Positions 2,249 to 39,102 are shown, counted from the stretch's first letter. The stretch is 64,000 bases of DNA from Clostridia bacterium (GCA_040767365.1 JAXGOR010000004.1:971-64970); one strand, 5' to 3'. The notes: a model not told the origin generated them from the sequence alone. A program made the numbers and translations.

Positions 2249-3490
2249 TTAGTCCGGTTCATCCGGTTCAGACGTATCTGGCTCTGTGGTTGACTCCGTG
2301 GGCGTCGTTGTCGGTGGCGGATCAGTGGTCGTTGCCTTCGTGGTCGCCGGCGCCTCCGTGGTCGTCGTCGGTGCCTTCGTGGTCGGTGGGGCCGTTGTCG
2401 GCTCAGGAGTCGGGGGCTCCGTCTCGGTCGGTGGGGTCGTTGCCGTCATCTCCTCCTCTGTGACCACCTTGATCTTGGTCCTGAGCTCCTCATAGGAGCC
2501 GTCCGGATAGCTGATGACGATCAGGACCGTCCTCAGGACGGGATTGGCCACATCGGGTGTGTAGAGGTAGCGGTAGCTGGTGCCGGCTGGGAGCTGGTCC
2601 TTGTTGGCGACACAATCCGCCGCGGGGGGGAGGGTACCGGCCGGGGTCATGGGTTGGGCGGCCGCCGGCTTGTACTTCCAGGCCATATTGTTCTTCTCGC
2701 GCTGTCGGTAGGGGTTGGCGGGGTCCATGTCGGTGGGGTCCCAGCGGGTATTGAGATCGACCGGGGGCAGGCCCTCGGCCTCGGGGATGGTGTAGCCCTT
2801 GCTGCTTTGGAAAACATAGACCGCCATACCCTTGTGGACATTGTCGGCCAGCCAGATGGCGTCCCGCATAGCCAGGCGGATGCAGCCATGCGAGATGGTG
2901 TTCCGGCCCAGGCTCCGGTAGCCCGCCAGGTTGAAGAGGCTCTTGTCAAGGGGGACATCCTTGCCGTCCGGATCCACGAAATGGTCGTAGGGTTGTGAAT
3001 GGAAGAAAATGTCGCCGGCGACATGGGTGGCGTAGCGGACCCAGACGATGGGGCGGGATTTGGTGAAGAGCATGAGGCGGGCCGTATAGCCTGAAATGAT
3101 GTGGGGCTTGTCGGCCGGCGTCGTCGGCGTCTTCAGGGCGCCCGCGCCGGTGGAGATCCGGAGGGAGACCTCGGCCATGGGCTCACCATCTTCGGGCGTA
3201 TGGAAGAAGACGGCTCGCTGGATATCGAGGAAGACAATGACATGGGAGAAATGGTGGATTACCGGGGCTTCCGTGGTCGTAGTCGTAGTCGTGGTGGTCG
3301 TGGTCGTGGTAGTTGTCGTGGTGGTCGTGGTCGTAGGCGTGGTGAAGTCGAAGTCATCCGGCGGATCCTCCAGACCTGCCGTCGGGGAAACAGGCGTCCG
3401 GCGGCAGGAAAAGGCGCACAGGGCCGAACTCATAAAAATGACAGATATAATAAGAAGCACGATGGCTTTCCGGTCAAGGATGCGTTTCAT
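2249..3490 (-). CDS. L,D-transpeptidase (YkuD domain) paralog with a 21-Thr run, an extra C-terminal domain and a PT-rich tail
   Basis: N-terminal signal/anchor MKRILDRKAIVLLIISVIFMSSALCAF and a catalytic SHGCIRLAMRD motif. It shares the WDPTD motif and the VRYATH..FFHS core with the 786..2057 product. Confidence 0.85.
   Translation of the reverse strand: MKRILDRKAIVLLIISVIFMSSALCAFSCRRTPVSPTAGLEDPPDDFDFTTPTTTTTTTTTTTTTTTTTTTTTEAPVIHHFSHVIVFLDIQRAVFFHTPEDGEPMAEVSLRISTGAGALKTPTTPADKPHIISGYTARLMLFTKSRPIVWVRYATHVAGDIFFHSQPYDHFVDPDGKDVPLDKSLFNLAGYRSLGRNTISHGCIRLAMRDAIWLADNVHKGMAVYVFQSSKGYTIPEAEGLPPVDLNTRWDPTDMDPANPYRQREKNNMAWKYKPAAAQPMTPAGTLPPAADCVANKDQLPAGTSYRYLYTPDVANPVLRTVLIVISYPDGSYEELRTKIKVVTEEEMTATTPPTETEPPTPEPTTAPPTTKAPTTTTEAPATTKATTTDPPPTTTPTESTTEPDTSEPDEPD
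3272..3334. repeat. Run of 21 consecutive Thr codons (mixed ACG/ACC/ACT/ACA)
   Basis: Counted codon by codon on the minus strand between the Pro codon (3335-3337) and the Glu codon (3269-3271). Confidence 0.9.
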
Positions 3491-6913: not shown

Positions 6914-6965
6914 TCTTGGAGGCTAAGGGAGCTTTTCCCGGTAAATTCAAAAGAGGGAGTTAGCT

Positions 6966-9389
6966 ATGGAAGTTGGGAGAAGGACCAAGCGCGTCGACGC
7001 CTTTGACAAGGCCACCGGCCGCGCCAAATACACGGACGATCTTTGTCCGGGGAACGCTTACGTATCGCGGATCCTGCACTCGACCATCGCGCATGGCCGG
7101 GTGCTTCATATTGACACAACTGAGGCAGAGAAGATCGAGGGGGTCATAAAGATTCTCACTTGTTTTGATGTCCCTGATATTCTCTTCGCGACAGCGGGCC
7201 ATCCCTGGACCACGGATCCAACCAAACAGGACATTGCGGACCGGAAAATCCTGAACGAACACGTCCGCTATTACGGTGACGATATCGCGGTTGTCGTGGC
7301 GGAGGACTATGTCGCCGCGGACCGGGCGATCCGGGCCCTGAAAGTGGAATACGAGGAGTATCCTTTTGTCCTCGACCCCATTGAGGCCCTGCAGGAGGGG
7401 GCCCCTGTCATCCACGAGGAACGCCCCGATAATCTGCTGGGGCACAGCAGCATCCGCCAGGGTGACTATGAGGAGGCCATCAAGGAGCCGGGCCTGATCA
7501 AGGTGGAGGGTTGGTACCATACGCCGACCGTCCAGCACGCCCACCTTGAAAACCACGTCGCCTATGCCTATGAGGAACAGGGCGGCCGGATCACGGTCGT
7601 CTGCTCCACCCAGATCCCCCACCTGATCAGGCGGATCACGGCCCAGGCCCTGGGACTGCCCTGGGGTAAGGTCCGGGTCATCAAGCCCTATATAGGGGGC
7701 GGCTTTGGCAACAAGCAGGACGCCCTCTATGAGCCGCTGGTGGCCTGGTTGACAACACAGGTCGGCGGCCATCCCGTCAAGTATGACAGCAGCCGTGAGG
7801 AGACCTTCGTCAGCAGCCGGGTCCGTCACGCCATGCATGCCCACATTATTTCCTGGCTGAGGCCGGATGGGGAGATCGTGGCCAGGAAGCTCGATCTCTA
7901 TTCCGACAACGGGGCCTACGCCTCGCATGGACATGGGGTGGTCCAGAAGGCCATGGGGGCCTTCCCCCAGCTCTACCCCTGCGAAAATTTTGAATCCGAC
8001 TGCCGGACGGCCTATACCAACAAGCCGGCGGCCGGGGCCATGCGGGCCTACGGCATCCCCCAGGCCATGTTCCAGCTGGAGAGCCACACCGAGGATATTG
8101 TGGACCAACTCGGACTGGATCCCCACGAATTCCGGCAGAAGCACTCCATGCCGGTCGGCTATTACGACGATTTTTCCAAGAACGAGCTCTACCATGACAG
8201 CCTGAGGCAGACCATGGACAAGGCCCGAGAACTCATGGATTACGACAGGAAGCGGGAACTCTACAAGAACCAGACGGGACCCGTGCGCCGGGGCATCGGC
8301 CTGGCCCTCTTCTGGTACAACACGGCTGTTTGGCCCATCAGTATCGAGACATCAACCTGCCGGCTCATGCTCAACCCGGACGGATCCGTCCAGGCCATGA
8401 CCGGCGAGACCGAGATCGGCCAGGGCTTCGATACGGTCTTCGCCCAGATGGTGGCTGACGCCGCCGGTGTCAAGTTTGAAGACGTCCATGTCTTCACCAA
8501 CCAGGATACGGATGTCAGCCCCTACGGCTCCGGCGCCTATGGCTCCCGCCAGACCTATGTCAGCAGCTTCGCCGTCGCGCAGACCGGCAAGCTCTTCAAG
8601 GAAAAAGTCCTGGCCCAGGCCCATGCCATGACCCGGATGCCCCTTGAGGTCCTGGACCTGGTCGACGGCAAGATCGTCCGCAAGACGGACGGCCGCGAGC
8701 TCCTGACCCTGGAAAAACTGGCGACGGAAACCCTCTATGACTTCAAGCGGAGCGAGAACATCGCGGCGGAGAGTACCTATTCCGTCCAGAGCAACGCCTA
8801 TTCCTTCGGCGTCTCCATCGCGGAGGTGGAAGTGGACATCCCCCTCTGCAAGGTCAAGCTGCTCGATATCGTCAATGTCCACGACTGCGGGACCCTGATC
8901 AACCCCGACCTGGCCGAGGGCCAGGTTCACGGGGGCATGAGCATGGGGATCGGCTACGGCCTCTATGAGAATCTCCTGCTCGATGAGAAGACGGGCCGGG
9001 TCCTCAACGACAACCTGCTTGACTACAAGCTGCCTACCACCATGGATCATCCGGATCTCAAGGCCGGTTTTGTCGAAAACCCGGAGCCGACCAGCCCCTT
9101 CGGGACCAAGGCCCTGGGCGAACCGCCGGCCTGTTCCCCGGCCCCGGCCATCCGCAACGCCGTCCTGCAGGCGACGGGCGTGGCCGTCAATTCCATCCCC
9201 CTGTCGCCCCACCAGCTCTTCAAGGATTTCTCGGAGGCTGGCCTGCTGGAGACGGAGGAGGAAAGGCAGCTCCGCCGGAAGGCCTATGAGGAATTGAAGG
9301 ATACGGTCATCCAGGTGACCGAGGAAAGCGGGACCGAAACGCCGGTTGAAAGCAAGAGTCCCGAATTGCAACCCCGCGACAAAGCGTAG
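6966..9389 (+). CDS. xanthine dehydrogenase family protein, molybdopterin-binding large subunit
   Basis: 807 aa with KPYIGGGFGNKQD, GAMRAYGIPQ and FGTKALGEPP motifs of Mo-hydroxylases. SD AGAGGGAG. It has an acidic tail of about 60 aa beyond the conserved end. Confidence 0.85.
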   Translation: MEVGRRTKRVDAFDKATGRAKYTDDLCPGNAYVSRILHSTIAHGRVLHIDTTEAEKIEGVIKILTCFDVPDILFATAGHPWTTDPTKQDIADRKILNEHVRYYGDDIAVVVAEDYVAADRAIRALKVEYEEYPFVLDPIEALQEGAPVIHEERPDNLLGHSSIRQGDYEEAIKEPGLIKVEGWYHTPTVQHAHLENHVAYAYEEQGGRITVVCSTQIPHLIRRITAQALGLPWGKVRVIKPYIGGGFGNKQDALYEPLVAWLTTQVGGHPVKYDSSREETFVSSRVRHAMHAHIISWLRPDGEIVARKLDLYSDNGAYASHGHGVVQKAMGAFPQLYPCENFESDCRTAYTNKPAAGAMRAYGIPQAMFQLESHTEDIVDQLGLDPHEFRQKHSMPVGYYDDFSKNELYHDSLRQTMDKARELMDYDRKRELYKNQTGPVRRGIGLALFWYNTAVWPISIETSTCRLMLNPDGSVQAMTGETEIGQGFDTVFAQMVADAAGVKFEDVHVFTNQDTDVSPYGSGAYGSRQTYVSSFAVAQTGKLFKEKVLAQAHAMTRMPLEVLDLVDGKIVRKTDGRELLTLEKLATETLYDFKRSENIAAESTYSVQSNAYSFGVSIAEVEVDIPLCKVKLLDIVNVHDCGTLINPDLAEGQVHGGMSMGIGYGLYENLLLDEKTGRVLNDNLLDYKLPTTMDHPDLKAGFVENPEPTSPFGTKALGEPPACSPAPAIRNAVLQATGVAVNSIPLSPHQLFKDFSEAGLLETEEERQLRRKAYEELKDTVIQVTEESGTETPVESKSPELQPRDKA

Positions 9390-9404
9390 ATAAGAGGTAA
9401 GTAT

Positions 9405-10286
9405 ATGTACGATATCAACCATCTTTACGAAGCGACCTCGGTCGATCACGCTGTCGCCCTACGCCAGGAACATCCGCAGGCCCTTGTCATCAGCGGGGGC
9501 TCCGATATCCTGATCAGCATCCGGTCAGGTGAGCTGGCGGCTTGTGACCTGATCAGCCTCTACGGCCTGGATGAGTTGCGCGGCGTCTCCCTGGATGAGG
9601 ACGGCAGCCTCCGCGTCGGGGCCCTGGCCAGCTTCAGCCAGGTCGCTGAAAGCCCCCTGATCAAGGACCTGATCCCTGTCCTGGGGGAAGCGGCCGACAC
9701 GGTCGGCGGGCCCCAGATCCGAAACATCGGAACCCTGGGCGGCAACACCTGCAATGGGGTCACATCGGCGGATACGGCCTCCACCCTCCTGGCCCATGAC
9801 GCGGTCATGGAGTTGACAGGCCCCCGGGGCGTCAGGCTGGTCCCCCTGACAGACTTCTATCTGGGTGTCAAGAAGGTGGACCTGGCCCCCGACGAAATCG
9901 CGACGGCCATCCTGATCCGGCCGGAGGACTACCGGGGCTATTTCGGCTACTACTTCAAATACGCCATGCGGGAGGCTATGGATATCGCGACCAGCGGTTG
10001 CTCGGTCAATGTCAAGCTGAGCGCGGATAAGAAGACAATCGAGGATGCCCGGATCAGCTACGGGGTGGCGGGACCCATCCCCCTGCGGGCGCGGACGGCC
10101 GAAGAGGCGGTCAAGGGCAAGCCCCTGACCCCGGATACGGTCGAAGCCTTCGCGGCCGGGGCCCTGGAGGACGTCAATCCGAGGACAAGCTGGCGGGCAA
10201 GCCGGGAATTCCGGCTCCATATCCAAAGGGAACTGGCGCGTCGATGCTTCACTGAATCGATCCGGCGCGCGGGAGGTAGTGTGTAA
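9405..10286 (+). CDS. xanthine dehydrogenase family FAD-binding subunit
   Basis: 293 aa, FAD_binding_5/CO_deh_flav_C type (…ISGGSDILI…, …IRNIGTLGGN…). Confidence 0.85.
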   Translation: MYDINHLYEATSVDHAVALRQEHPQALVISGGSDILISIRSGELAACDLISLYGLDELRGVSLDEDGSLRVGALASFSQVAESPLIKDLIPVLGEAADTVGGPQIRNIGTLGGNTCNGVTSADTASTLLAHDAVMELTGPRGVRLVPLTDFYLGVKKVDLAPDEIATAILIRPEDYRGYFGYYFKYAMREAMDIATSGCSVNVKLSADKKTIEDARISYGVAGPIPLRARTAEEAVKGKPLTPDTVEAFAAGALEDVNPRTSWRASREFRLHIQRELARRCFTESIRRAGGSV

Positions 10287-10789
10287 TGGCTAAGGTTCAG
10301 TATAAGGAGATCCACTTTGTTTTGAATGGCAGGGAGGTCACGGCTTCAGTTGACGTGCGCCAATCCCTGGCCGATACCCTCCGCGAGGAGTTCGGCGCCC
10401 TCTCGGTCAAGAAGGGCTGTGAAGTTGGCGAATGCGGCGCCTGCACCGTCCTCATCGACGGCAGGCCCTACAATTCCTGCATCTTCCTGGCCGCCTGGAT
10501 TGACGGCAAGGAGGTAACCACCCTGGAGGGCCTTATGGACAAGGATGGCAAGATCGCCGATATCCAGCAGGCCTTCATTGACGAGGCGGCCGTCCAGTGC
10601 GGCTTTTGCACACCGGGATTCATTATGTCGGCGGAACACCTGCTCCGTACAGGCAAGCGCTACTCGCGCCAGGAGATACGGAGGGAGCTTTCCGGCAACA
10701 TGTGCCGCTGCACCGGCTACCAGAACATTGTGGACGCCGTCGAGAAGACCATGGAGAAAAGACTGGCGGAAAAAGACGCGGACTCCTGA
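10286..10789 (+). CDS. (2Fe-2S)-binding small subunit of the molybdenum hydroxylase
   Basis: 167 aa with CEVGECGACTV and CGFCTPG...CRCTGY cluster motifs. The ATG overlaps the upstream stop (TAATG). Confidence 0.9.
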   Translation: MAKVQYKEIHFVLNGREVTASVDVRQSLADTLREEFGALSVKKGCEVGECGACTVLIDGRPYNSCIFLAAWIDGKEVTTLEGLMDKDGKIADIQQAFIDEAAVQCGFCTPGFIMSAEHLLRTGKRYSRQEIRRELSGNMCRCTGYQNIVDAVEKTMEKRLAEKDADS

Positions 10790-23902: not shown

Positions 23903-23944
23903 GGACAGACCCGTGTTAAGATGGAAAGAAAAAAAGGAGACCCT

Positions 23945-24436
23945 ATGCAGATAACGCTCCCCCAGCTACCCCTGACTCCGCAAGCTTTCGCCGCCCTGGC
24001 GGCCGACTGGATGACCCGGCCGGAAGGGACGGCCGCCCTCCTGATCGTGGCGCTCAAGACCTATATCGAGGACCGGGAGGCCGGTCTTGCCATGCTGGAA
24101 CAGCTCCAAGGTCCCCGCCCCTTGTCCAATCACGACAGGCAGTTCATCCGGGACCGGCTCCTGGACAAGCCCTACCTGCCGGACTCCTACCTGGTGGGCG
24201 CCCGGCCCGACAATAATTACACACCCGACCAACCGCTGACCGTCCGGCTGGAACCCGACCCGGTCCCGGTCGAGAGCGAGGAGTTCACAAGACTGCGTCT
24301 GAGTTCGTCGGGCGCCGACAGCCCCCGGCTTGTGTCCCTGCGCCAGCAAAAAACCAGCGGGATCTGGTATCTCTGGGACTATCCCGGCTTCCTGTCCGGC
24401 ATCCGGATCCCCCTCTCGGAGGATCCCTGGGCCTGA
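23945..24436 (+). CDS. hypothetical protein
   Basis: MQITLPQLPLTPQAFAALAADW... ATG at 23945 preceded by AAAGGAG. No family recognised. Confidence 0.45.
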   Translation: MQITLPQLPLTPQAFAALAADWMTRPEGTAALLIVALKTYIEDREAGLAMLEQLQGPRPLSNHDRQFIRDRLLDKPYLPDSYLVGARPDNNYTPDQPLTVRLEPDPVPVESEEFTRLRLSSSGADSPRLVSLRQQKTSGIWYLWDYPGFLSGIRIPLSEDPWA

Positions 24437-24487: not shown

Positions 24488-25672
24488 TTAAAGCCGGGCG
24501 ACCCCCGAGTCCAGGGCCGCCTGGTAGACGGCCCTGGAGACGGCCTCCCTGAGCCTGGGATCCAGGGGATCCGGCAGGATCCGCTCCGCCGACAGGTCCT
24601 GGTCCCCGATCAGGTCCGCCAGGGCCTGGGCCGCCGCCTGCAGCATGGCCTGATTGATGTCGGAGGCCCTGGCGTCAAAGGCCCCGCGGAAGAGGCCGGG
24701 GAAGGCCAGGACATTGTTGATCTGGTTGGGGTAGTCCGACCGGCCCGTCGCGACCAGGGCCGCGCCCGCCTCCCTCGCGACCCTGGGGTCGATCTCCGGG
24801 TCGGGGTTGGCGCAGGCAAAGACAAGGGGCCCCGGGGCCATACGCTCGACCATGGCCCGGCTGACCAGGCCGGGGCCGGACAGGCCGATCAGGACTTCCG
24901 CCCCCTCCAGGGCCTGGGCCAGGTCACCTTTAACCCCCTCCTGGTTGGTCAGGGCGGCGACCGCCTCCTTGTCCGGATTCATCCCTTCCTGCCTGCCCGG
25001 GTAGAGCGTGCCCTCCCGGTCACAGAGGATGATCCGGCCGGCGCCGGAGGCCAGGAGGAGCCTGCTGGTGGCCAGGCCCGCCGCCCCAGCCCCGCTGATC
25101 ACGATCCGGACCTCCTCCAAAGTTTTCCCCGTCAGCCGGAGGGCATTGAGCAGGGCGGCCTGGACGACAACCGCCGTCCCATGCTGGTCATCGTGGAAGA
25201 CAGGAATATCGCAGAGGGCCTTCAACCTTCTCTCGATCTCAAAGCAACGGGGCGCCGAGATGTCCTCCAGATTGATCCCCCCGAAGCTGCCTGAAAGCAG
25301 GTAGATGGTCCGGACGATTTCATCGACATCCTTCGATTTTATGCAAAGGGGCAGGGCGTCAACAGCGCCCAGCTCCTTGAAGAGCACGCATTTCCCTTCC
25401 ATGACCGGCAGGGCGGCCTCCGGGCCGATATCACCCAGGCCCAGGACAGCCGTCCCGTCCGTCACCACCAGGCAGAGGTTCCAGCGCCGGGTGTAGTCAT
25501 AGGATTTCCTGGGATCCCGGGCGATCTCCAGGCAGGGGGCGGCCACCCCCGGCGTGTAGGCCAGGGACAGGTCCTCCCCTGTCGCCAGTGAAACCCGTGT
25601 TTTAATCTCGAATTTGCCCCGCCAGCCGGCATGGGCCTTGAGGGAGTCTTCCCCATAATTCCTTTTCGCCAT
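24488..25672 (-). CDS. NAD(P)-dependent malic enzyme (oxaloacetate-decarboxylating malate dehydrogenase)
   Basis: 394 aa with …LAYTPGVA…, …FHDDQHGTA… and …GAGAAG… motifs. SD GAGGAGG. Confidence 0.9.
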   Translation of the reverse strand: MAKRNYGEDSLKAHAGWRGKFEIKTRVSLATGEDLSLAYTPGVAAPCLEIARDPRKSYDYTRRWNLCLVVTDGTAVLGLGDIGPEAALPVMEGKCVLFKELGAVDALPLCIKSKDVDEIVRTIYLLSGSFGGINLEDISAPRCFEIERRLKALCDIPVFHDDQHGTAVVVQAALLNALRLTGKTLEEVRIVISGAGAAGLATSRLLLASGAGRIILCDREGTLYPGRQEGMNPDKEAVAALTNQEGVKGDLAQALEGAEVLIGLSGPGLVSRAMVERMAPGPLVFACANPDPEIDPRVAREAGAALVATGRSDYPNQINNVLAFPGLFRGAFDARASDINQAMLQAAAQALADLIGDQDLSAERILPDPLDPRLREAVSRAVYQAALDSGVARL

Positions 25673-25792
25673 CCTTGACCTCCTCTTGACCAGGGAACCC
25701 GGATCCGGGCGTCCACCCCGTCCACGATAGCACAGCCCCTCCGGGCCGGCCGCCGTTGCGCGGCCCCCTCTCTCATGCTAGTATAAAAAAGG

Positions 25793-25824
25793 TTATAATT
25801 ATTACGATATTAGAATGATTATAA
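25793..25824 (+). promoter_or_regulatory. Two adjacent 7-1-7 Per-box-like operators overlapping TATAAT hexamers
   Basis: TTATAATTATTACGA (25793-25807) and TTAGAATGATTATAA (25810-25824), compared with the B. subtilis PerR box TTATAATnATTATAA. TATAAT hexamers lie at 25794-25799 and 25820-25825. Confidence 0.6.
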
Positions 25825-25900
25825 TTCTAATGACGTAAGGGCAAGCCTGCTGTCGTCCGCGGGGACGATGACGGGAAACGCATGAAGAAAGGAAGATACT

Positions 25901-26509
25901 ATGCCAATGGTAGGAAAACCTGCCCCCATGTTCAAGGCGATGGCTTTTCATGAGGGCAAATTCAAGAAGGTCAAGCTGGAGGACTACAAAGATCAATGGG
26001 TTATGATTTGTTTCTATCCCGGCGATTTCACCTTTGTCTGAGCGACTGAGGTGGCTGCAGTTGCAGCAAGGTATGAAGAATTTGAGGCCCTGGGCGTACA
26101 GGTACTGTCCATCTCGGTTGACAGCGAGTTCGTCCATAAGATCTGGAACGATGTCGAACTGTCCAAAATCGCGGGCAAGGATGTCCCCTTCCCCATGCTT
26201 TCTGATTCATCCGGCGCCATCGGTGAACTCTTCGGGGTCTATGACCGCGAGGCCGGCGTCAACGTCAGGGGCCGCTTCCTGGTCGATCCCGACGGTGTGA
26301 TCCAGGCTATGGAAGTCCTGACACCGCCCGTCGGCCGAAATGTTTCCGAGGCCATCCGCCAGATCAAGGCCTACCAGCTGGTCCGCAGGACCAAGGGCGG
26401 GGAAGTCACTCCCTCAGGCTGGCAGGAGGGCGGCAAGACACTGAAGCCCGGGATCGGCCTTGTCGGCAAGATCGCCGATCATTGGACGGTCGCCGATTCC
26501 TACAAGTAG
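25901..26509 (+). CDS. prxU: peroxiredoxin (AhpC/Prx1 type) with in-frame TGA (selenocysteine) at the peroxidatic position, codon 47
   Basis: The ATG at 25901 reads [49 protein letters not shown](26039-26041)[28 protein letters not shown]... The same frame continues into ORF-track ORF 26051..26509. The TGA replaces the Cys of the FTFVCPTE motif. Confidence 0.8.
26054..26067 (+). promoter_or_regulatory. Candidate bacterial SECIS apical hairpin
   Basis: GCUGC-AGUU-GCAGC starts 12 nt after the UGA. The loop G/U lie at +22 to +24 from the U of UGA. Confidence 0.45.
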
Positions 26510-26545
26510 GGATCGCCCCTTTGTAGGGACAGGGAGGCTGGACGC

Positions 26546-26956
26546 GTGATCCGGAATACGGTCGATCTTCTGAAAGATCACGGGATCAATCCTTCGAGCC
26601 AGAGGGTCAGGATCTACGACTATCTGGCGACTTCGGAGGACCACCCGACCGTTGATGACATCTACGCCCACTTGCAGAGGGAGGGTCATCTCTTTTCGCG
26701 CGCGACCGTCTACAACACGGTCAAGCTTTTCCTGAAGAAAGGATTGATCCGGACTGTCAGGGTCGAGGAGAAGGAGATGCGGTTCGATGCCGCCCCCGGC
26801 TTTCACGCCCACTTCAAATGTGGGAACTGTGGCGCCATCCTCGACATCGAGACGGAGAGGCCCCGACTCAAGGGTCACCCAGACTATGAGGTGCATGAGA
26901 CCAGCCTGGTCTTTGAGGGCCTCTGCCCTGACTGCCTTGAAAAAGAGGCGGACTGA
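26546..26956 (+). CDS. perR: Fur family transcriptional regulator, PerR-like
   Basis: 136 aa with a winged helix (SRATVYNTVKLF), HAHFKCGNCG and GLCPDC zinc motifs. GTG start 9 nt after GGGAGG, 37 nt downstream of the peroxiredoxin. Confidence 0.75.
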   Translation: MIRNTVDLLKDHGINPSSQRVRIYDYLATSEDHPTVDDIYAHLQREGHLFSRATVYNTVKLFLKKGLIRTVRVEEKEMRFDAAPGFHAHFKCGNCGAILDIETERPRLKGHPDYEVHETSLVFEGLCPDCLEKEAD

Positions 26957-26982
26957 CGGTCCCCGGCTCCCTGACTTACCTG

Positions 26983-27008
26983 GTCCCCGGCCGGCAACGG
27001 CCGGGGAC
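26983..27008. terminator. Hairpin terminator between convergent perR and the 5'-nucleotidase gene
   Basis: GTCCCCGGCCG-GCAA-CGGCCGGGGAC followed by TT. Confidence 0.65.
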
Positions 27009-27010
27009 TT

Positions 27011-28486
27011 CTATCTGTCCTCAAGCACAGCGGCCAGTTTGATCCGCCCGTCCCGCCGGTTGCGGGGGATCTTGTGCTTTCGGAAATATTCGATCAGGTT
27101 GTCCTGGGCCGAGGTGCTGACAACGCGGACCCGGCCTTTCAAGGCGATCTCCTCCTGGCTGATGCCGAAGTTGTCGGCGATGATCCCGTAATGGTACTCC
27201 TGCATGGCGATCCTGTACTCCCCGTCCGGATCCAGGGGGGCCCCCTTCATGAGGACCTGGCCCAGCTCCCCCGTCGCCTCCACCTCAACCCTCAGGTCAC
27301 GGTTCCATTGATAGAATTCGCGTGTGCCGGCCTGGTAGAGCGAGCGCATGAGGTGCCCCAGCATGGCGCGCAGGGTCCTCCCATCAACCGTGAAGCTGAT
27401 CATGGCCTCGTCGTAGGGGTAGATCTCCATGAGATCGGAGCGGGAGACAAGGGCCTGGAGCTTGGGCTTCCTGATGGAACCGGAGGCGACGAAGACCAGG
27501 TCGACCCCCAGCTGGTAGCTGAGGATATCGGAAAAGAGATTGCCCAGCTCCGTCTCCCGGAAGCGGTTGCCATGCTCCATCTCATGGGGGAGGCGGCAGA
27601 TCACGGTATTGTACTTGTCGTCAATCTCCTGCTGGTATTCCGTAAGCAGCTGGTCCATGACAGGGTCATTGGGGCAGTGGGAGTCATCGATGGGGACAGC
27701 CTCCCAGATGAAGTCATGGACGGAGTTGCTGTCCATGTTGATCGTGAGGTCGAAGCGGCCCAGAAAATCCGTCCCCGAACCCACCTGGGCGATCAGGATG
27801 TCATTCACCTTCTCGGGTTGCTCCAGGAGGGTATGGCTGTGTCCCCCGATGATGAGATCGACCCCCAGCTCGGGCGGGAGCAGGGCGGCCAACCGCTTGT
27901 CCTGGTCGAAACCGATATGGGTCAGGAGGACCGTCAGGTCGATGTCGACATCCTTGTAGCTGTTGCAGATATACTCCACCTCCTCGGCGGCGTCCTCGAT
28001 GCTGATGAAGGTCCCGAGCAGGGCCTCGCTCTTGCTCTTGGCCAGGACCTCCTCGGTGATGATGCCGATGAAGAGGATCCGGATACCGTCCAGCTCCAGG
28101 ATATGGTAGGGCTTGAAGAGATTGGACCCGGTGGGCTTGATATAGAGATTGGCGTTGACGATGGGGAAGTTGGCGCAGCGCTCCAGGAACATGAGGTGGG
28201 CGAAACCGTAGTCCATCTCATGGTTGCCCAGGGTCACCACGTCAGGCTCCAGCATGTTCATGACCAGGATGGTCGATATCCCCCGGTATTCCTGGTCGAT
28301 GATCGAACCCTGGAGCATGTCCCCTGAGATGACGTAGAGGACGGGGTCGGTCTCCTCCTCCCGCGTCTTGTGTACATAGCCGGAGAGCCGGCTCATGCCA
28401 CCCACCATCTTGTCGTGGGTCTCCTTGGCAAAGAAGTTGCCATGCATATCGTTCGAATGCAGTAAAACCAAGCGCCGCAGTTCCAT
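27011..28486 (-). CDS. bifunctional metallophosphatase/5'-nucleotidase
   Basis: MELRRLVLLHSNDMHGNFF..., GNHEMDYG, a C-terminal 5'-nucleotidase domain and no signal peptide. ATG at 28486 with GGGGGAG upstream. Confidence 0.85.
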   Translation of the reverse strand: MELRRLVLLHSNDMHGNFFAKETHDKMVGGMSRLSGYVHKTREEETDPVLYVISGDMLQGSIIDQEYRGISTILVMNMLEPDVVTLGNHEMDYGFAHLMFLERCANFPIVNANLYIKPTGSNLFKPYHILELDGIRILFIGIITEEVLAKSKSEALLGTFISIEDAAEEVEYICNSYKDVDIDLTVLLTHIGFDQDKRLAALLPPELGVDLIIGGHSHTLLEQPEKVNDILIAQVGSGTDFLGRFDLTINMDSNSVHDFIWEAVPIDDSHCPNDPVMDQLLTEYQQEIDDKYNTVICRLPHEMEHGNRFRETELGNLFSDILSYQLGVDLVFVASGSIRKPKLQALVSRSDLMEIYPYDEAMISFTVDGRTLRAMLGHLMRSLYQAGTREFYQWNRDLRVEVEATGELGQVLMKGAPLDPDGEYRIAMQEYHYGIIADNFGISQEEIALKGRVRVVSTSAQDNLIEYFRKHKIPRNRRDGRIKLAAVLEDR

Positions 28487-28794
28487 TCCCCACTCCCCCT
28501 TCCACCCGCGCCCTGCCTGGGTCGGGACCGGATGTTTGCAATTCATTTGATACTAGCATAAGGGAATCCGGCCCGCGCATGGTCCATGGTGATGGGGACT
28601 TGCCAATCCTGGAACAATGGCTGATAATCAGTATGTGTTTTTTGTGTATGGATGAGTCATATGTAACATTGCCTGAACCGGTTTCCGGATGCGCCCCTTT
28701 GACAAGGTTATCCTGATGATTTTACGACGCCGCCCGCGCCGGTTGACTGACCATGTCCCTGACTCCGCCATCTTCAAAATCGAAGGAGGAGAAC

Positions 28795-29313
28795 ATGTCG
28801 CAACCTTGTCAATGCAAGACCCTCTCTGATGACGACCCCAGATACGAGGAATTACGGGCCTTCATAGAGAATGAGGAGAATAAGCAGGGAGTGGCTATGA
28901 CGGCCCTGCAGGAAGCGCAGCGCCTTTTTGGCTACCTGCCGCTGGAGGTCCACAAGTTCATCTCCAGCGAAACCGGGGTTCCCATCGCGGAACTCTACGG
29001 TGTCACCACCTTTTACAGCCAGTTCACCACCGTTCCCGAGGGGCAGCACCAGGTGCAGGTCTGTATGGGGACGGCTTGCTATGTGAAGGGCGCCCAGAAG
29101 GTGCTGGACAAGGTGGTCGAAGAGCTTGGCGTCGGGGTCGGCATGACAACGGAGGACCGTGTGTTCACCATCAATGCCGCCCGCTGTCTCGGTTGTTGCG
29201 GACTGGCCCCGGTCATGATGATTGACGGGGATGTCTACGCCAACCTGGACGATGTCGATGAGATCCCCTGCATTCTCGCCAATTACCGCAGAAGCAAGGT
29301 TTCAACTAAATAG
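28795..29313 (+). CDS. hydC: [FeFe]-hydrogenase NuoE-like [2Fe-2S] subunit
   Basis: CMGTACYVKG...CLGCCGLAP thioredoxin-like 2Fe-2S motif. ATG at 28795 follows AAGGAGG. Confidence 0.85.
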   Translation: MSQPCQCKTLSDDDPRYEELRAFIENEENKQGVAMTALQEAQRLFGYLPLEVHKFISSETGVPIAELYGVTTFYSQFTTVPEGQHQVQVCMGTACYVKGAQKVLDKVVEELGVGVGMTTEDRVFTINAARCLGCCGLAPVMMIDGDVYANLDDVDEIPCILANYRRSKVSTK

Positions 29314-29325
29314 AGGGGGCGGCAC

Positions 29326-31233
29326 ATGGATAAGCTGATGAAGAAGGAAGAGATGGGCGGCCGACTGGAGCCCCTGGCTTCCAGGGAAGCCCTGGACCGT
29401 CTGCGTGACGAATGGAAGGGGAAGCTGGAAAGGCCCGAACAGATCCGGGTGGTGGTCGGCATGGCCACCTGCGGCATCTCGGCCGGCGCCAGGCAGGTCT
29501 ACCAGGCCTTCTCCGAGGAATTCAAAAAACGTGGCCTGGACCAGGTCACCCTGGAAGAGGTGGGCTGTATCGGCATGTGCGTTTACGAGCCCATCGTCGA
29601 GGTCTATGAGGCCGGCAAGGACAAGGTCTCCTATATCCACGTCGACCCTTCTAAAGTGTCGACCATCGTGGAGGAGCATATCCTGGGCGGCAGGCCCTGC
29701 CCCAAGCTGACCCTGGCCGGACTGGACGATGACAGCGTCCTGCCGGATTGCACCGGTTTCGACGACCTCCCCTTCTACCGTAAACAGAAGCGGATCGTCC
29801 TCCACAACTGCGGTTTCATCAACCCGGAGGACGTCCGTGAATACATAGGCGTTGACGGCTACCAGGCCCTGGCCAAGGTCCTGACCGAGCTGTCACCCCA
29901 GGAAGTCATCGACCTGGTCTCCGCCTCCGGCCTCCGCGGCCGCGGCGGCGCCGGTTTCCCGACCGGCCTGAAATGGAAGTTCGCGGCCGACAACGAGGCA
30001 GATCAAAAATACATCATCTGCAACGCGGACGAGGGTGACCCGGGCGCCTTCATGGACCGGTCCGTCCTGGAGGGGGACCCGCACGCCATCATCGAAGCCC
30101 TGATCATCGGCGGCTACGCCATCGGGGCCTCCCAGGGCTGGCTCTATGTCCGGGCGGAATACCCGACTGCGGTCAAGCGCCTCCAGATCGCCATGGAGGA
30201 GGCCAAGGCCCTGGGCCTCCTGGGCAGGAATATCCTGAACAGCGGCTTTGACTTTGATATCCACATCCGCCTGGGGGCCGGCGCCTTTGTCTGCGGTGAG
30301 GAGACGGCCCTGATCGCCTCGATCGAGGGCAAGCGGGGCATGCCACGCAACAAGCCCCCCTTCCCCGCCAACAAGGGCCTCTGGGGCAAACCGACCATCA
30401 TCAATAATGTGGAGACCCTGGCCAATATCCCCGGCATCATCCGCCAGGGACCCGACTGGTTCCGGTCCATCGGGACGGAGAAGAGCTCCGGCACCAAGGT
30501 CTTCGCCCTGGGCGGCAAGATCACCAACACCGGCCTGGTTGAGGTTCCCATGGGGACCACCCTCCGCGAGGTCATCGAGGACATCGGGGGCGGCTGCCCC
30601 CATGGCAAGGAATTCAAGGCCGTCCAGACGGGCGGTCCTTCGGGCGGCTGCCTGACCCGGGAGGCCCTGGACGTCCCCATCGATTTCGATCGCCTGGTGG
30701 AACTGGGCTCCATGATGGGTTCGGGCGGCATGATCGTCATGGACGAGGACAACTGCATGGTCGACATCGCCCGCTTCTTCCTGGACTTCACCGTGGATGA
30801 GTCCTGCGGCCAGTGTGTCCCCTGCCGGGAAGGCACCAAGCGCATGCTGGAGATCCTGGACAAGATCACCTGCGGGGCCGCGGTCGAACAGGATCTGGAT
30901 GACCTGCTCGAGCTGGCCGGCAATATCAGCCTGACCTCGCTTTGCGCCCTGGGGCAGACCGCGCCCAACCCGGTCCTCTCCACCATGACGCATTTCATGG
31001 ACGAATACCGGGCCCACGTCATTGACAAAAGGTGTCCCTCCGGTGTCTGCCAGGACCTGCTCGGCTATACCATCAACGAGACCTGCCGCGGCTGTACCAA
31101 GTGCGTCCGCGTCTGTCCGGTCGACGCGATTTCGGGCAAGGTCAAGGAGCAGCACTACATTGACCAGGCGGTCTGCATCCGCTGCGGCGCCTGTTTCGAG
31201 GTCTGCCCCTTCGACTCGATCGATCGGCGCTAG
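29326..31233 (+). CDS. hydB: [FeFe]-hydrogenase NuoF-like flavoprotein subunit (FMN/NAD(P)H, Fe-S)
   Basis: 635 aa with GRGGAGFPTGLKWKF, ESCGQCVPCREG, an N-terminal 2Fe-2S domain and two C-terminal CxxCxxCxxxCP ferredoxin motifs. Confidence 0.9.
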   Translation: MDKLMKKEEMGGRLEPLASREALDRLRDEWKGKLERPEQIRVVVGMATCGISAGARQVYQAFSEEFKKRGLDQVTLEEVGCIGMCVYEPIVEVYEAGKDKVSYIHVDPSKVSTIVEEHILGGRPCPKLTLAGLDDDSVLPDCTGFDDLPFYRKQKRIVLHNCGFINPEDVREYIGVDGYQALAKVLTELSPQEVIDLVSASGLRGRGGAGFPTGLKWKFAADNEADQKYIICNADEGDPGAFMDRSVLEGDPHAIIEALIIGGYAIGASQGWLYVRAEYPTAVKRLQIAMEEAKALGLLGRNILNSGFDFDIHIRLGAGAFVCGEETALIASIEGKRGMPRNKPPFPANKGLWGKPTIINNVETLANIPGIIRQGPDWFRSIGTEKSSGTKVFALGGKITNTGLVEVPMGTTLREVIEDIGGGCPHGKEFKAVQTGGPSGGCLTREALDVPIDFDRLVELGSMMGSGGMIVMDEDNCMVDIARFFLDFTVDESCGQCVPCREGTKRMLEILDKITCGAAVEQDLDDLLELAGNISLTSLCALGQTAPNPVLSTMTHFMDEYRAHVIDKRCPSGVCQDLLGYTINETCRGCTKCVRVCPVDAISGKVKEQHYIDQAVCIRCGACFEVCPFDSIDRR

Positions 31234-31250
31234 GAAGGAAGGAGTCCCCT

Positions 31251-33068
31251 ATGACAGAGAAAAAGACCAGCGTAACCATTACCATAAATAACCGCCAGAT
31301 AGAGGCCCATCCCAATGAGACCGTCTTCCAGGCGGCCCACCGGTCGGGTATCCGGATCCCTTCCCTTTGCTACCTGAAAGACACCAATGAGATCGCCGCC
31401 TGCCGGCTCTGCGTGGCCGAGGTCGATGTCAAGGGCAGGCCCATGCGGGGTCTGCCGGCCACCTGCGTGCTCAAGGTCGAGGAAGGCATGAATGTCAAGA
31501 CCAACACCCGGGTGGTCCGGCAGGCCGTCCGGATGAATCTGGAACTGATCCTGGCCAACCACGATATGAACTGCCCCACCTGCCTCCGCAACGGGACCTG
31601 TGAACTCCAGGCCCTCTGCGAGGAGCGCGGGATCACGGGCGTCCGTTTTGAAGGGGCCAAGCGGCCGGTCACCATCGACCAGCTGTCCCCCTCCATCGTC
31701 CGTGACACCAGCAAGTGCATCCTTTGTGGCCGCTGTGTCAGCACCTGCAACAAGGTGCAGGGCCTGGGGGTCCTCTCCTTCACCAACCGGGGCTTTGATA
31801 CCGAGGTCGGCCCGGCCTTCGACTTCAGCATGAATGACGTCAACTGCGTCTACTGCGGCCAGTGCATTGAGGCCTGCCCGGTGGCGGCCCTCCACGAGCG
31901 CCGCCATATCGATGATGTCTGGGATGCCCTGGACGACCCCGACAAGGTGGTCGTGGTCCAGACGGCCCCTGCCGTCCGCGCCTCCCTCGGCGAGGAGTTC
32001 AGCTACCCGGTGGGAACCCCGGTGACAGGAAAGATGACGGCGGCCTTGCGGCAGATAGGCTTTGACTATGTCTTTGACACCAACTTCTCAGCCGACCTGA
32101 CCATCAGCGAAGAGGCCAATGAACTGCTCCACCGTCTGAGGACGGGCGGGACCCTGCCCATGATCACCTCCTGTTCGCCGGGCTGGATCCGCTTCTGTGA
32201 GATGTACCATCCCGACTTCCTGCCCAACCTCTCGACCTGCAAGTCGCCCCAGAATATGATGGGCGCCCTGGTCAAGTCCTATTTCGCCCAGATCAAGGGG
32301 CTGGATCCCGAAAAGATCGTGGTCGTCTCCTGCATGCCCTGTATCGCGAAGAAATCCGAGGCGGACCGGGATGAACTCGAGGTCGACGGGATCAGGGATG
32401 TTGATTTCTCCCTGACCACCCGGGAGCTGGGTGACATGATCAAGCAGGCCGGCATCGACTTCCACGAACTGAAGGATGAGGAGCCTGACAGCGTCCTGGG
32501 CGACTATACCGGCGCGGCCGTCATCTTCGGCGTGACGGGCGGGGTCATGGAGGCGGCCCTTCGTACGGCGGCCGATGTGCTGACGGGCGAGGACCTGCCC
32601 AATTTCGAGTATGAGGCCGTCCGGGGACTGGAAGGGGTCAAGGAGGCCTCGGTCACCCTGCCGCTTGACGGGGTCCCCACCGAACTGAAGGTGGTCGTCT
32701 GCTCCAGTGTCAAACAGGCTGACGCCGTCTTGAAGGCGGTGAGGAGGGGCGAGAAGGACTGCCATTTCATCGAGGTCATGGCCTGCCCCGGCGGCTGCAT
32801 CCACGGGGGCGGCCAGTCCTACGTGTCTGCCAGGGACCGGATGGATGCGGACCCCCGCCTGGCCCGGGCCAAGGCCCTCTACAGCGAGGACGAACGCCAG
32901 GTCATACGGAAGTCGCATCAGAACCCCGAGCTGGTCCAGCTGATCGAGCGCTTCCTCGGGCAGCCCAACAGCCCGGTAGCCCACAAGTATCTGCATACCC
33001 ACTACCAGGCCAGGACCTATTACGATCAGATGACCCGGGAGGAATGTCTTGAAGAAGGACTCCTCTAG
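31251..33068 (+). CDS. hydA: [FeFe]-hydrogenase catalytic subunit (group A, multi-F-cluster N-terminus)
   Basis: 605 aa. H-cluster motif L2 is MPCIAKKSE and L3 is EVMACPGGCIHGGGQ. L1 reads TSCSPGW (variant). Confidence 0.9.
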   Translation: MTEKKTSVTITINNRQIEAHPNETVFQAAHRSGIRIPSLCYLKDTNEIAACRLCVAEVDVKGRPMRGLPATCVLKVEEGMNVKTNTRVVRQAVRMNLELILANHDMNCPTCLRNGTCELQALCEERGITGVRFEGAKRPVTIDQLSPSIVRDTSKCILCGRCVSTCNKVQGLGVLSFTNRGFDTEVGPAFDFSMNDVNCVYCGQCIEACPVAALHERRHIDDVWDALDDPDKVVVVQTAPAVRASLGEEFSYPVGTPVTGKMTAALRQIGFDYVFDTNFSADLTISEEANELLHRLRTGGTLPMITSCSPGWIRFCEMYHPDFLPNLSTCKSPQNMMGALVKSYFAQIKGLDPEKIVVVSCMPCIAKKSEADRDELEVDGIRDVDFSLTTRELGDMIKQAGIDFHELKDEEPDSVLGDYTGAAVIFGVTGGVMEAALRTAADVLTGEDLPNFEYEAVRGLEGVKEASVTLPLDGVPTELKVVVCSSVKQADAVLKAVRRGEKDCHFIEVMACPGGCIHGGGQSYVSARDRMDADPRLARAKALYSEDERQVIRKSHQNPELVQLIERFLGQPNSPVAHKYLHTHYQARTYYDQMTREECLEEGLL

Positions 33069-37244: not shown

Positions 37245-39102
37245 ATGGACGGCATTACCGCGCACGCCTTAAGACCCGAATTGGACAGCCTGCTGGCCGG
37301 GTCGCAGATCGACCGGATCTCCATGGAGGACCGCCATACGCTTAAGCTCCTCCTCTTTGCCCCCGACAGGCGGAAATATTCCCTGAGTCTGGCCGCGAAT
37401 CCGTCGCGCCCCGGCCTTTCCCTGACCCTCCCGTCAGGGGGCCGCGGCCTGAATCCACCGCCGGCCTTTGTCATGTACCTGCGCAAACACCTGGGTCGCG
37501 CCCGCTTGCTGGCTGTCGAATCACCGCCCTGGGAAAGGGTTTTCAACTTCCGGTTCCTGGCCCTGGACGAGCTGGGCGATGAGCTGCCGCTGGAACTGGT
37601 CTTCGAGTGCATGCCCCGGACCGCCAACCTGATCCTCCTCAACCGGGACCAGGTCATTATGGGCGCCTTGCGGACCGTCGACCACAGGGTCAACCGCTAC
37701 CGGGAGATCCTCCCGGCCCACCCCTACCTCCCCCCGCCCCCCCAGAAGGGTCTGGAACCCCAGGCCTGCGTCGGGCTCCCTGCCCACGATTGGGAGGCGC
37801 GTCTGGACCCGGCCCTGCCCGTCGGCCGGGCCGTCTCGGGCGCCCTGGCCGGCTTCTCCCCCCGGCTCGGCAGGGAAGCCGCCTACCGGGCGGGTCTCGA
37901 CCCCAGCCTTCCCCTGAATGCCCTCAAGGAGGGGGAACGGGGGAAGCTGCGTGAGGCCGCCCTCTCCCTCTGCCGGGAGGCCCTTGACGGACCCCTGGCG
38001 CCCGCCATCTACTATGACGGGCCGGAGGGTCCCGCCCGGCGGCCGCTGGCGGTCCATGCCTCCCCTGACCCATCTTCCCTGGTCCGTCCCCTACCCCACC
38101 ATGACCCAGGCCCTGGCCAGCTACCAGGAGGAAACCGCCCGGCTGGACCGGTTCGACAGGCGGAGGAGGTCCCTGGCGAAACGGATTGGCGAACAGAGCA
38201 AGCGGGTCCAAAAAAGCGGCAGCTCCATGGAGGCGGACCTGGCCGAAGGGAGGGAGGCGGACCAGGACCGGCTGAAGGGGGAACTGATCCTGGCCTATCT
38301 CCACACCATCCCCCCGGGCGCTGAAAAGGTCGAGCTTGAGAACTATCACGAATCAGGCGCCCCGGTCTCCTGCGCCCTGGATCCCCGTTGGTCACCCGCG
38401 GAAAATGCCAACCGCTACTTTGCCCGGGCCAGACGGAAGGAGAGAAAACTCCAGGCGGCCGGCCGCCTCCTGGCCAAGGACCTGGACGAGCTTGCCTGGC
38501 TGGAGTCGCTGGCGGCGGCCACCGGCTACGCCGAGTCCGAGGAGGACCTCCTGGCCCTGGAACAGGAATACAGGGCCCGGCCGGAGAAGAAGGCAGGCAA
38601 GGAAGAGGAACCGGATCAGCGGGATTCGCTCCCCGGCCGGCCCGCCTCCAAAAAGAGACGGATGCGGCAGACCTTCGGGGACTACCGGAAAAAACAGGAC
38701 AGGACGCCCGCCCGCGGCAGCGGCCTGCCAGCCCCGCCCCGCGCCTTCAAGTCCTCTGACGGTTTCAGCCTGCTTTCCGGCCGCAACAACCTGCAAAATG
38801 ACAGCCTGCTCCGCAAGGCCGCCCGCCAGGACCTCTGGTTTCATGTCAAAAACCGGCCTGGCTCGCATGTGATCCTGGTCACCGGGGGCCGGCCCGTCCC
38901 CGACAGGGCCCTGGAGGAGGCCGCCGGCATCGCGGCCTGGTATTCGGATGCCGGCCGGTCGGGGGCCGCCCTGGAGGTCGATTACGCCCAGGTGGGGGAC
39001 GTAAAAAAAATCCCGGGCTCCCGGCCGGGAAATGTGACCTACGACAAATTCAAGACCCTCTATGTCCGGCCCCTGGACCCGGCTGACCTGGCCGGATCCT
39101 GA
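37245..39102 (+). pseudogene. rqcH: ribosome quality-control factor RqcH (FbpA/NFACT family), split by a frameshift near 38062-38065
   Basis: The NFACT-N half (MDGITAHALRPELDSLLAGSQIDRISMEDRHTLKLLL...) is in the frame of 37245. The coiled-coil and NFACT-R half (...FKSSDGFSLLSGRNNLQNDSLL...FHVKNRPGSHVIL...) is in the +1 frame of ORF 37918..39102. Confidence 0.75.

Follow-up and report, generated by a model that had tools for sequence, protein, structure and literature searches.

Peroxiredoxins in which selenocysteine (Sec) takes the place of the peroxidatic cysteine are a known and curated kind of selenoprotein, given the NCBIfam model NF040737 (peroxi_PrxU), their listing in reviews and the form found in Clostridium sticklandii. 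Two reviews (PMC9312934 and PMC13188914) include Prx (PF00578, TxxU) among the bacterial selenoproteins verified by experiment, with reference to work on Eubacterium acidaminophilum (Sohling et al., 2001), the organism from which the first-pass annotation of the DNA described here had also mentioned a Sec-containing peroxiredoxin, PrxU. The genome of C. sticklandii encodes a seleno-peroxiredoxin of 240 residues with Sec at residue 84 (CLOST_2406), as well as a PerR-like protein (PMC3091704). Here we describe a gene of this kind in a 64,000-nt stretch of DNA (the window) from a Clostridia bacterium (GCA_040767365.1 JAXGOR010000004.1:971-64970). With a probability of roughly 0.88, positions 25901–26509 are one intact prxU gene that encodes a peroxiredoxin of the AhpC/Prx1 fold with Sec at residue 47, is recoded by means of a selenocysteine insertion sequence (SECIS) and is controlled through Per boxes. 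The in-frame TGA at 26039–26041 is, judging from the sequence and its relatives, almost certainly the Sec codon; the gene thus adds one more to a selenoprotein family that is already known and curated and that is widespread.

The window protein and PrxU of Eubacterium (Peptoclostridium) acidaminophilum belong to the same equivalog family and share Sec (predicted in the window protein) at the peroxidatic position of a PxxxTxxU motif, an AhpC/Prx1 fold without the C-terminal resolving Cys, and an anaerobic Clostridia host; the host of the window protein belongs to a different, uncultured lineage (Saccharofermentanales/'Mageeibacillus'-like, G+C ~61%). Both are short forms of ~200 residues, the E. 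acidaminophilum protein being said to have 203 residues, with Sec at residue 47. CLOST_2406 is likewise a Sec-peroxiredoxin of an anaerobic member of the Clostridia, but it is a long form, whereas the window protein begins at the catalytic domain; the Sec of CLOST_2406 lies 37 residues later, a position that suggests an N-terminal extension such as those of P0001, L008, and L083. Typical 2-Cys peroxiredoxins (AhpC/Prx1/Prx2; PDB 1we0 and 1qmv) have the same fold and active site as the window protein (E = 1e-46; aligned segments ~40–50% identical by eye; catalytic Thr and Arg kept), which differs from them in having Sec for the peroxidatic Cys, Thr for the resolving Cys of the VCP motif and no adjacent ahpF.

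The gene consists of a single frame of 202 codons from the ATG at 25901 to the TAG at 26507–26509, in which the TGA at 26039–26041 is the sole internal stop; another in-frame TGA, at 25883, lies six codons 5′ of the ATG. Residues around the internal TGA read P40-G-D-F-T44-F-V-U47, in agreement with the PxxxTxxU motif given in PMC13188914. The first-pass annotation had reported this interrupted frame with a purine-rich sequence upstream, and both were exact on re-reading (AGAAAGGAAG at 25886–25895). It had also pointed out a mechanically called open reading frame (ORF; 26051–26509, GTG start) in the same frame, 150 nt downstream of the ATG, that would lack the active site; its 152 residues indeed include no peroxidatic residue. 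Elsewhere in the window TGA acts as a normal stop: of the 52 ORFs that third-position GC content supports (window G+C ~61%), 19 end in TAG, 18 in TGA and 15 in TAA; at least 13 Pfam-supported genes terminate at TGA, including the Fur-family gene directly 3′ of prxU; and the three TGA stops that had been cited earlier (10787–10789, 24434–24436, and 39100–39102) are the ends of genes at 10286–10789, 23921–24436, and 37918–39102. The recoding is therefore local, as had been proposed, and does not reflect an altered genetic code. A six-frame search for ORFs joined across a TGA was too noisy at this G+C content to show other candidates, and the same-frame TGA-joined pairs that it listed (e.g., 6960–9458, minus strand) are explained as shadows of genes with Pfam support on the opposite strand.

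Profile matches and structures agree on the identity of the joined product. The Pfam AhpC-TSA domain spans residues 4–136 unbroken across the TGA (3.4e-36), and, with Cys put in place of the TGA residue in the query, the NF040737 equivalog (thioredoxin-dependent peroxiredoxin) is matched at 345.7 bits (cut-off 270), which upholds the original identification as a Sec peroxiredoxin of the PrxU type; the AhpC equivalog TIGR03137 is missed (199.4 bits, cut-off 272). In an alignment to AhpC (1we0) and Prx2, the catalytic residues Thr44 and Arg123 are conserved and the TGA residue falls on the Cys of FVCPTE, the peroxidatic position to which it had been assigned from the motif. Toward the C-terminus, the window protein has EVTPSGW where AhpC has EVCPAKW, so that Thr replaces the resolving Cys. 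Its sole other Cys, the family-specific Cys37, lies ten residues before Sec47 and is a Cys in nearly all of ~100 Sec forms. Relative to the 233 positions of the NF040737 profile, which include a Cys-bearing N-terminal extension, the window protein is short (~200 residues) and covers positions 37–231 only; positions 1–36, with their conserved Cys, are not present in the window protein, and the window lineage has no extension. Because short forms are common in the PrxU family, the missing region is read as a difference of subtype that does not exclude the protein from the family.

Directly after the TGA lies a short hairpin which, numbered from the U of UGA as 1, forms the pairs G16–C29, C17–G28, U18–A27, G19–C26, and C20–G25 around the loop A21 G22 U23 U24 (window positions 26054–26067) and which has a free energy of −8.3 kcal/mol when folded alone. 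The published model of the bacterial SECIS (PMC13188914) asks for a loop of 3–9 nt with G among its first two bases, 4 or more bp in the stem, a spacing of 16–37 nt, and a minimum free energy (MFE) of −7.5 kcal/mol or lower; the window hairpin lies within all of these limits, with a 4-nt loop whose second base is G, 5 contiguous bp in the stem, a 17-nt spacing and the energy given above. An element of this kind had been proposed as something to look for just after the TGA, and the hairpin at 26052–26069 both agrees with the published limits and covaries in Sec forms. In 55 distinct TGA-bearing sequences, pairing across the helix columns 14–20/25–31 amounts to 85.7%, and their covariation score is 0.375 as compared with 0.096 ± 0.015 after shuffling (0 of 500 shuffles as high) and at most 0.174 in slid controls. 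Pair 18–27, which joins two codon third positions, is paired in 55/55 sequences (GC 32, AU 13, UA 9, CG 1); pair 15–30 occurs as four pair types and pair 16–29 as three. Cys-form homologues whose loop codons (numbers eight and nine after the Sec/Cys codon) likewise encode Val-Ala serve as controls: with metagenome loci included, 80 of 81 Sec forms have complementary bases at pair 18–27, as opposed to 4 of 11 Cys forms, and for complementarity at the loop-flanking positions 21/24 (A..U or G..C around an invariant G-U) the figures are 78 of 81 and 2 of 11. The SECIS assignment rests on covariation and not on energy.

Like the SECIS of E. coli fdhF, the model for bacterial elements, the window hairpin is an in-coding structure right after UGA with a four-base apical loop and an exposed G-U. 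The loop is GGUC in fdhF, exactly as in 30 of the 55 TGA-bearing orthologues, and AGUU in the window, and it occupies positions 22–25 and 21–24, respectively, from the U of UGA. The window stem is the shorter of the two (5 contiguous bp, with as many as 7 bp in other family members), no conserved lower helix or bulged U was found in it, and binding by SelB is predicted. In the proposed mechanism, the UGA at 26039 would be recoded through this short hairpin (a 5–7-bp stem with the AGUU apical loop, 17 nt after UGA), which SelB (the selenocysteine-specific elongation factor) would bind, bringing Sec-tRNA(Sec) to the ribosome.

The family also offers some variations on this element. A second TGA-bearing clade, with the peptide PTE-I/L-S-H-I-A-V, has a more distal hairpin (AUAGC, a loop with GU(U/G), and GCUAU) at columns 22–26/32–36, paired in 16/16 sequences when the first 60 nt after the TGA are considered (L028, L032, L034, L039, L041, L042, L046, L047, L050, L052, L055, L057, L062, L064, L078, and L079); there are thus two SECIS placements within the PrxU family. 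In two Cloacimonadales loci (L020 and L023), the codon (3130–3132) is TGC, yet the hairpin CAGC-GGUC-GCUG is intact and the 30 nt after the codon have 1–3 differences from the TGA-bearing L024 and L030; these loci appear to have changed from Sec to Cys recently and to retain a fossil SECIS. In the window itself, the MFE hairpin of the 62-nt fold after the TGA (4–12/17–26; z = +0.69) had no covariation support and was dropped for the hairpin at 14–20/25–31. No Rfam family was matched at gathering thresholds across the whole window, and a DUF3800-XI RNA candidate in 25700–26600, obtained at permissive thresholds, is at chance level (E = 1.7).

The same TGA could in principle mark a pseudogene, in which a nonsense mutation has turned the TGC or TGT of an ordinary Cys-peroxiredoxin into TGA and both halves are decaying. 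The frame is indeed interrupted in the standard code, and rqcH (37245–39102) seems to be frameshifted, so that at least one gene of the assembly or genome is broken. Against decay stands the distribution of the codon: in a scan of one genome per species (79 loci, of which 75 have a readable motif), TGA is found at the peroxidatic codon in 71 of the 75 and TGT or TGC in 4, across Bacillota, Chloroflexota, Zixibacteria, Cloacimonadota, Actinomycetota, Synergistota, Desulfobacterota, and others, and among metagenome loci, TGA is found in 34 of the 58 that are readable even though a Cys-type homologue was the query, although these ratios do not represent population frequencies because both samples are skewed to relatives of the queries. 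The statement of the first-pass annotation that such genes are rare does not hold, since over 100 orthologues with TGA were found in a wide range of phyla. The ratio of nonsynonymous to synonymous substitution rates (dN/dS), measured against nine close relatives, is 0–0.13 for the 46 codons before the TGA and 0.04–0.10 for the 155 codons after it, and the same ATG is used in 9/9; these low values on either side of the TGA, together with the shared ATG, indicate that both halves form one translated protein under purifying selection. Orthologues that start at 26051 behind an unconserved upstream region, an outcome that had been named earlier as one that would speak against a Sec codon, are not what is seen among the close orthologues. 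The ribosome-binding site and promoter are conserved as well, and the downstream synonymous sites covary in a way that preserves the hairpin; a pseudogene is scarcely credible. An error of sequencing or assembly at a codon that is really TGC or TGT might be suspected in what is probably a metagenome-assembled contig with one apparent frameshift elsewhere, but nine species-level relatives (79–96% protein identity) all have TGA, and so does an independent ENA contig (L080, 3089 bp) that is 99.9% identical to 24940–28028 (3 differences/3089), which reduces this explanation to a negligible chance.

Two further accounts take the codon as real and read it differently. According to the public annotation, translation would stop at the TGA to give a 46-residue peptide and re-initiate at the GTG of 26051 to give a 152-residue redoxin-domain protein, and the output of gene callers matches it, with proteins of 152 residues (P0009 and P0059) and a pair of 37 and 152 residues on L080. 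The 152-residue form, however, would be without the peroxidatic residue, the PxxxT motif and strands β1–β3; no purine-rich ribosome-binding site is seen by eye in the ~15 nt 5′ of 26051 (CTTTGTCTGAGCGACTGAG); and the Pfam and NCBIfam profiles run gapless through the TGA. Partial termination at UGA under selenium limitation is expected in any selenoprotein gene as a by-product, and two products in the sense of the public annotation are highly improbable. Read-through of UGA as another amino acid, either Trp (genetic codes 4 or 25) or Cys inserted via the Sec machinery or a near-cognate tRNA, is also very unlikely, even though some pipelines give orthologues a W at this position (P0012, P0014, and P0079) and insertion of Cys at Sec-UGA codons under selenium deficiency, described in other systems, counts for the Cys variant. 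The Pfam-supported genes that end in TGA and the G+C content of the window are at odds with codes 4 and 25, Trp at the peroxidatic position would abolish catalysis, and the hairpin presents a SelB-type G-U loop at the canonical distance; occasional insertion of Cys would be a minor variant of the Sec mechanism and not an alternative to it.

Besides the skew of the locus samples, several results weigh against a SECIS-recoded, Per-box-controlled prxU. Four stem pairs of the seven in the family helix are largely forced by the coding of Ala-Ala-Val-Ala-Ala, which leaves the pairs between third positions as the informative ones; taken as a whole, the 62-nt segment 3′ of the TGA is not unusually stable (z = +0.69); and RNAalifold, run with default settings on a 48-nt alignment, returned no consensus structure, the helix at 14–20/25–31 being visible by explicit pair counting only. 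A simple consensus scan made no promoter call at 25756–25784, so the promoter assigned there is a putative one, and the Fur-family protein encoded next to prxU scores below every PerR equivalog cut-off (96.1 bits vs. 180). Finally, no selA, selB, selD, or tRNA-Sec is present in the 64-kb window (ARAGORN, 0 tRNAs; Pfam scans of ~50 ORFs), and no second selenoprotein gene was recognized there in the same Pfam scans.

For a Sec47 enzyme of this structure, the catalytic cycle would begin with attack of the selenolate on H2O2 or an organic hydroperoxide to give a selenenic acid. With Thr at the place of the resolving Cys and no Cys-bearing extension at the N-terminus, regeneration would be 1-Cys-like, by direct reduction by thioredoxin or another thiol, possibly via Cys37. 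Many PrxU homologues, both Sec and Cys forms, have an N-terminal extension of ~35–40 residues with a single conserved Cys near its start (MSYCDRP, GCARPTG, GCTRP, SCVEP, etc.; L008:2900–3003, L083–L101, and other loci; P0001–P0008), which is not found in the window lineage, the Coriobacteriia forms or the 'MLVTK' group. The conserved Cys of this extension may have a resolving role, with the extension as an N-terminal arm; the literature searched yielded nothing on the Cys-bearing extension of PrxU homologues. It seems unlikely, though it would fit the conservation patterns, that PrxU has an undescribed resolving arrangement (the arm Cys in long forms, Cys37 or none in short forms, with a selenenylsulfide) and that the window lineage, in losing the arm, has gone over to a true 1-Sec mechanism. 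An out-of-frame 'ACCRPRGR' (25845–25868) that resembles the 'GCxRP' of long forms might be taken for what is left of a former extension, but it is attributed to chance, since its frame is a different one, a stop precedes it and the closest relative (L001) does not have it.

The view of the first-pass annotation that such genes are mis-annotated is borne out by public entries, which are 'redoxin domain-containing' proteins of 152 and 139 residues or have the TGA translated as Trp. C-terminal fragments of 139–152 residues are deposited at NCBI, ENA, and JGI as 'redoxin domain-containing protein' or 'AhpC' [P0009, P0059, P0121 (NLA95944.1), and P0129 (NLB04911.1)], and the full-length entries P0012, P0014, and P0079 have Trp at the active site; at the locus of P0079 that was checked (L153), the codon is TGA and the stored protein differs from the translation of the locus. 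The window gene is almost certainly intact and its public 152-residue annotation wrong. Because orthologues are deposited as fragments or with Trp, metabolic and stress reconstructions of anaerobic-digester Clostridia miss a probably highly reactive peroxide scavenger and the selenium dependence that comes with it. The main value of the locus lies in this correction and in its illustration of a SECIS, for it is a clear natural case of one maintained purely by synonymous-site covariation, in an Ala-Ala-Val-Ala-Ala segment for which the Cys-form homologues supply a ready negative control; knowledge of selenoproteins or peroxiredoxins is left unchanged. The features of the locus are collected in Table 1.

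Table 1. Features assigned at the prxU locus, in window coordinates.
Feature	Position	Strand	Description	Basis
Putative sigma-A-type promoter	25756..25784	+	−35 TTGCGC 25756–25761; 17-nt spacer; TG-extended −10 TAGTAT 25779–25784	Read from sequence; hexamers and TG conserved across eight related loci
Per box 1	25793..25807	+	TTATAATTATTACGA	2 mismatches to TTATAATNATTATAA; core GTTATAATAATTA conserved in relatives
Per box 2	25810..25824	+	TTAGAATGATTATAA	1 mismatch; within 18-nt inverted repeat 25802–25838
5′ leader stem-loop	25846..25875	+	Core UCGUCC-GCGG-GGACGA, between Per boxes and ribosome-binding site	Leader fold
Ribosome-binding site	25886..25895	+	AGAAAGGAAG	Purine-rich; AGAAAGGAA kept in all close relatives, 5–9 nt 5′ of ATG
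prxU	25901..26509	+	Selenocysteine-containing, thioredoxin-dependent-type peroxiredoxin; 202 residues; short form, without N-terminal extension	Frame; profile matches; purifying selection on both sides of TGA
UGA, almost certainly a selenocysteine codon	26039..26041	+	Residue 47, peroxidatic position; motif P40-x-x-x-T44-x-x-U47	Frame; orthologue codons; structure alignment; independent contig
Bacterial SECIS hairpin (predicted)	26052..26069	+	Contiguous stem 26054–26058/26063–26067 (GCUGC/GCAGC); apical loop AGUU 26059–26062; G-U 26060–26061	Energy; covariation; limits of PMC13188914
Fur-family regulator, PerR-like	26546..26956	+	136 residues; own GGGAGG ribosome-binding site	Pfam FUR 1.8e-22; 36 nt 3′ of prxU

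Upstream of prxU, the Per-box consensus TTATAATNATTATAA, which is that of B. subtilis and was not derived for the window lineage, is matched twice in the 64 kb, both times at prxU, where 100 shuffles lead to an expectation of 0; both matches are conserved in eight related loci. The arrangement resembles Bacillus/Clostridium PerR operators in its tandem 15-bp matches just 3′ of the −10 element of a peroxide-defence gene and in the Fur-family gene of the same operon; it differs from that regulon in a regulator that stays under the PerR equivalog cut-offs. The leader between the boxes and the ribosome-binding site is unusually stable (MFE −30.6 kcal/mol, z = −3.96; 0 of 200 shuffles as stable), and relatives L003, L004, and L075 have a different leader sequence that likewise pairs (CTGCCC...GGGCAG). 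Since no U-tract follows, the stem-loop is not an obvious terminator; it may be an mRNA-stabilizing 5′ hairpin.

The best NCBIfam matches of the Fur-family protein are PerR models, and the protein has the CGNCG and CPDC pairs typical of the structural zinc site of the Fur family. No terminator-like site is present in the 36 nt between prxU and this gene, and the order prxU–fur recurs in L080 and relatives; the gene arrangement suggests that the two are probably co-transcribed. They would form a peroxide-inducible, auto-regulated operon of prxU and a PerR-like repressor, with a promoter followed by two Per boxes to which PerR is predicted to bind.

The organism is placed among the strictly anaerobic Clostridia by the genes that surround prxU, which include a HydABC-type FeFe hydrogenase, a pyrophosphate-energized pump, malic enzyme, and phosphotransbutyrylase/butyrate-kinase-like genes, and by the closest genomes, which are 'Mageeibacillus', Saccharofermentanales, and Clostridiaceae metagenome-assembled genomes (MAGs), mostly from digesters (the best with 96% protein and 82% DNA identity). 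We infer that it has the Sec-decoding trait. The only Sec-machinery gene in the loci examined is a tRNA-SeC (anticodon TCA) at L050:3457–3553 (−), in a distantly related Clostridia MAG whose own prx gene, also with TGA, lies 2.7 kb away.

Other genes of the window were noted in passing. Downstream of the operon lie a convergent 5′-nucleotidase/metallophosphoesterase gene (27011–28546) and, at 28753–33068 (+), the HydABC-type trimeric hydrogenase cluster (electron-bifurcating type), with 2Fe-2S thioredoxin-like, NuoF-like, and HydA-like subunits. Window positions 6966–10789 (+) hold a three-gene operon for a molybdoenzyme of the xanthine-dehydrogenase family (MoCoBD large subunit, FAD_binding_5/CO_deh_flav_C, and Fer2/Fer2_2). 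Hydroxylases of this family need, in some Clostridia, a labile selenium cofactor made via SelD, and by analogy the operon would fit a selenium-using organism. The rqcH/NFACT gene mentioned above (+) consists of two overlapping ORFs in different frames, of which 37245–38324 covers NFACT_N positions 1–256 and 37918–39102 covers positions 275–438 and NFACT-R; the frame switches at ~38022–38083, a G+C-rich segment with no obvious homopolymer, and the split may reflect a mutation that shifted the frame, a pseudogene or a fault of the assembly.

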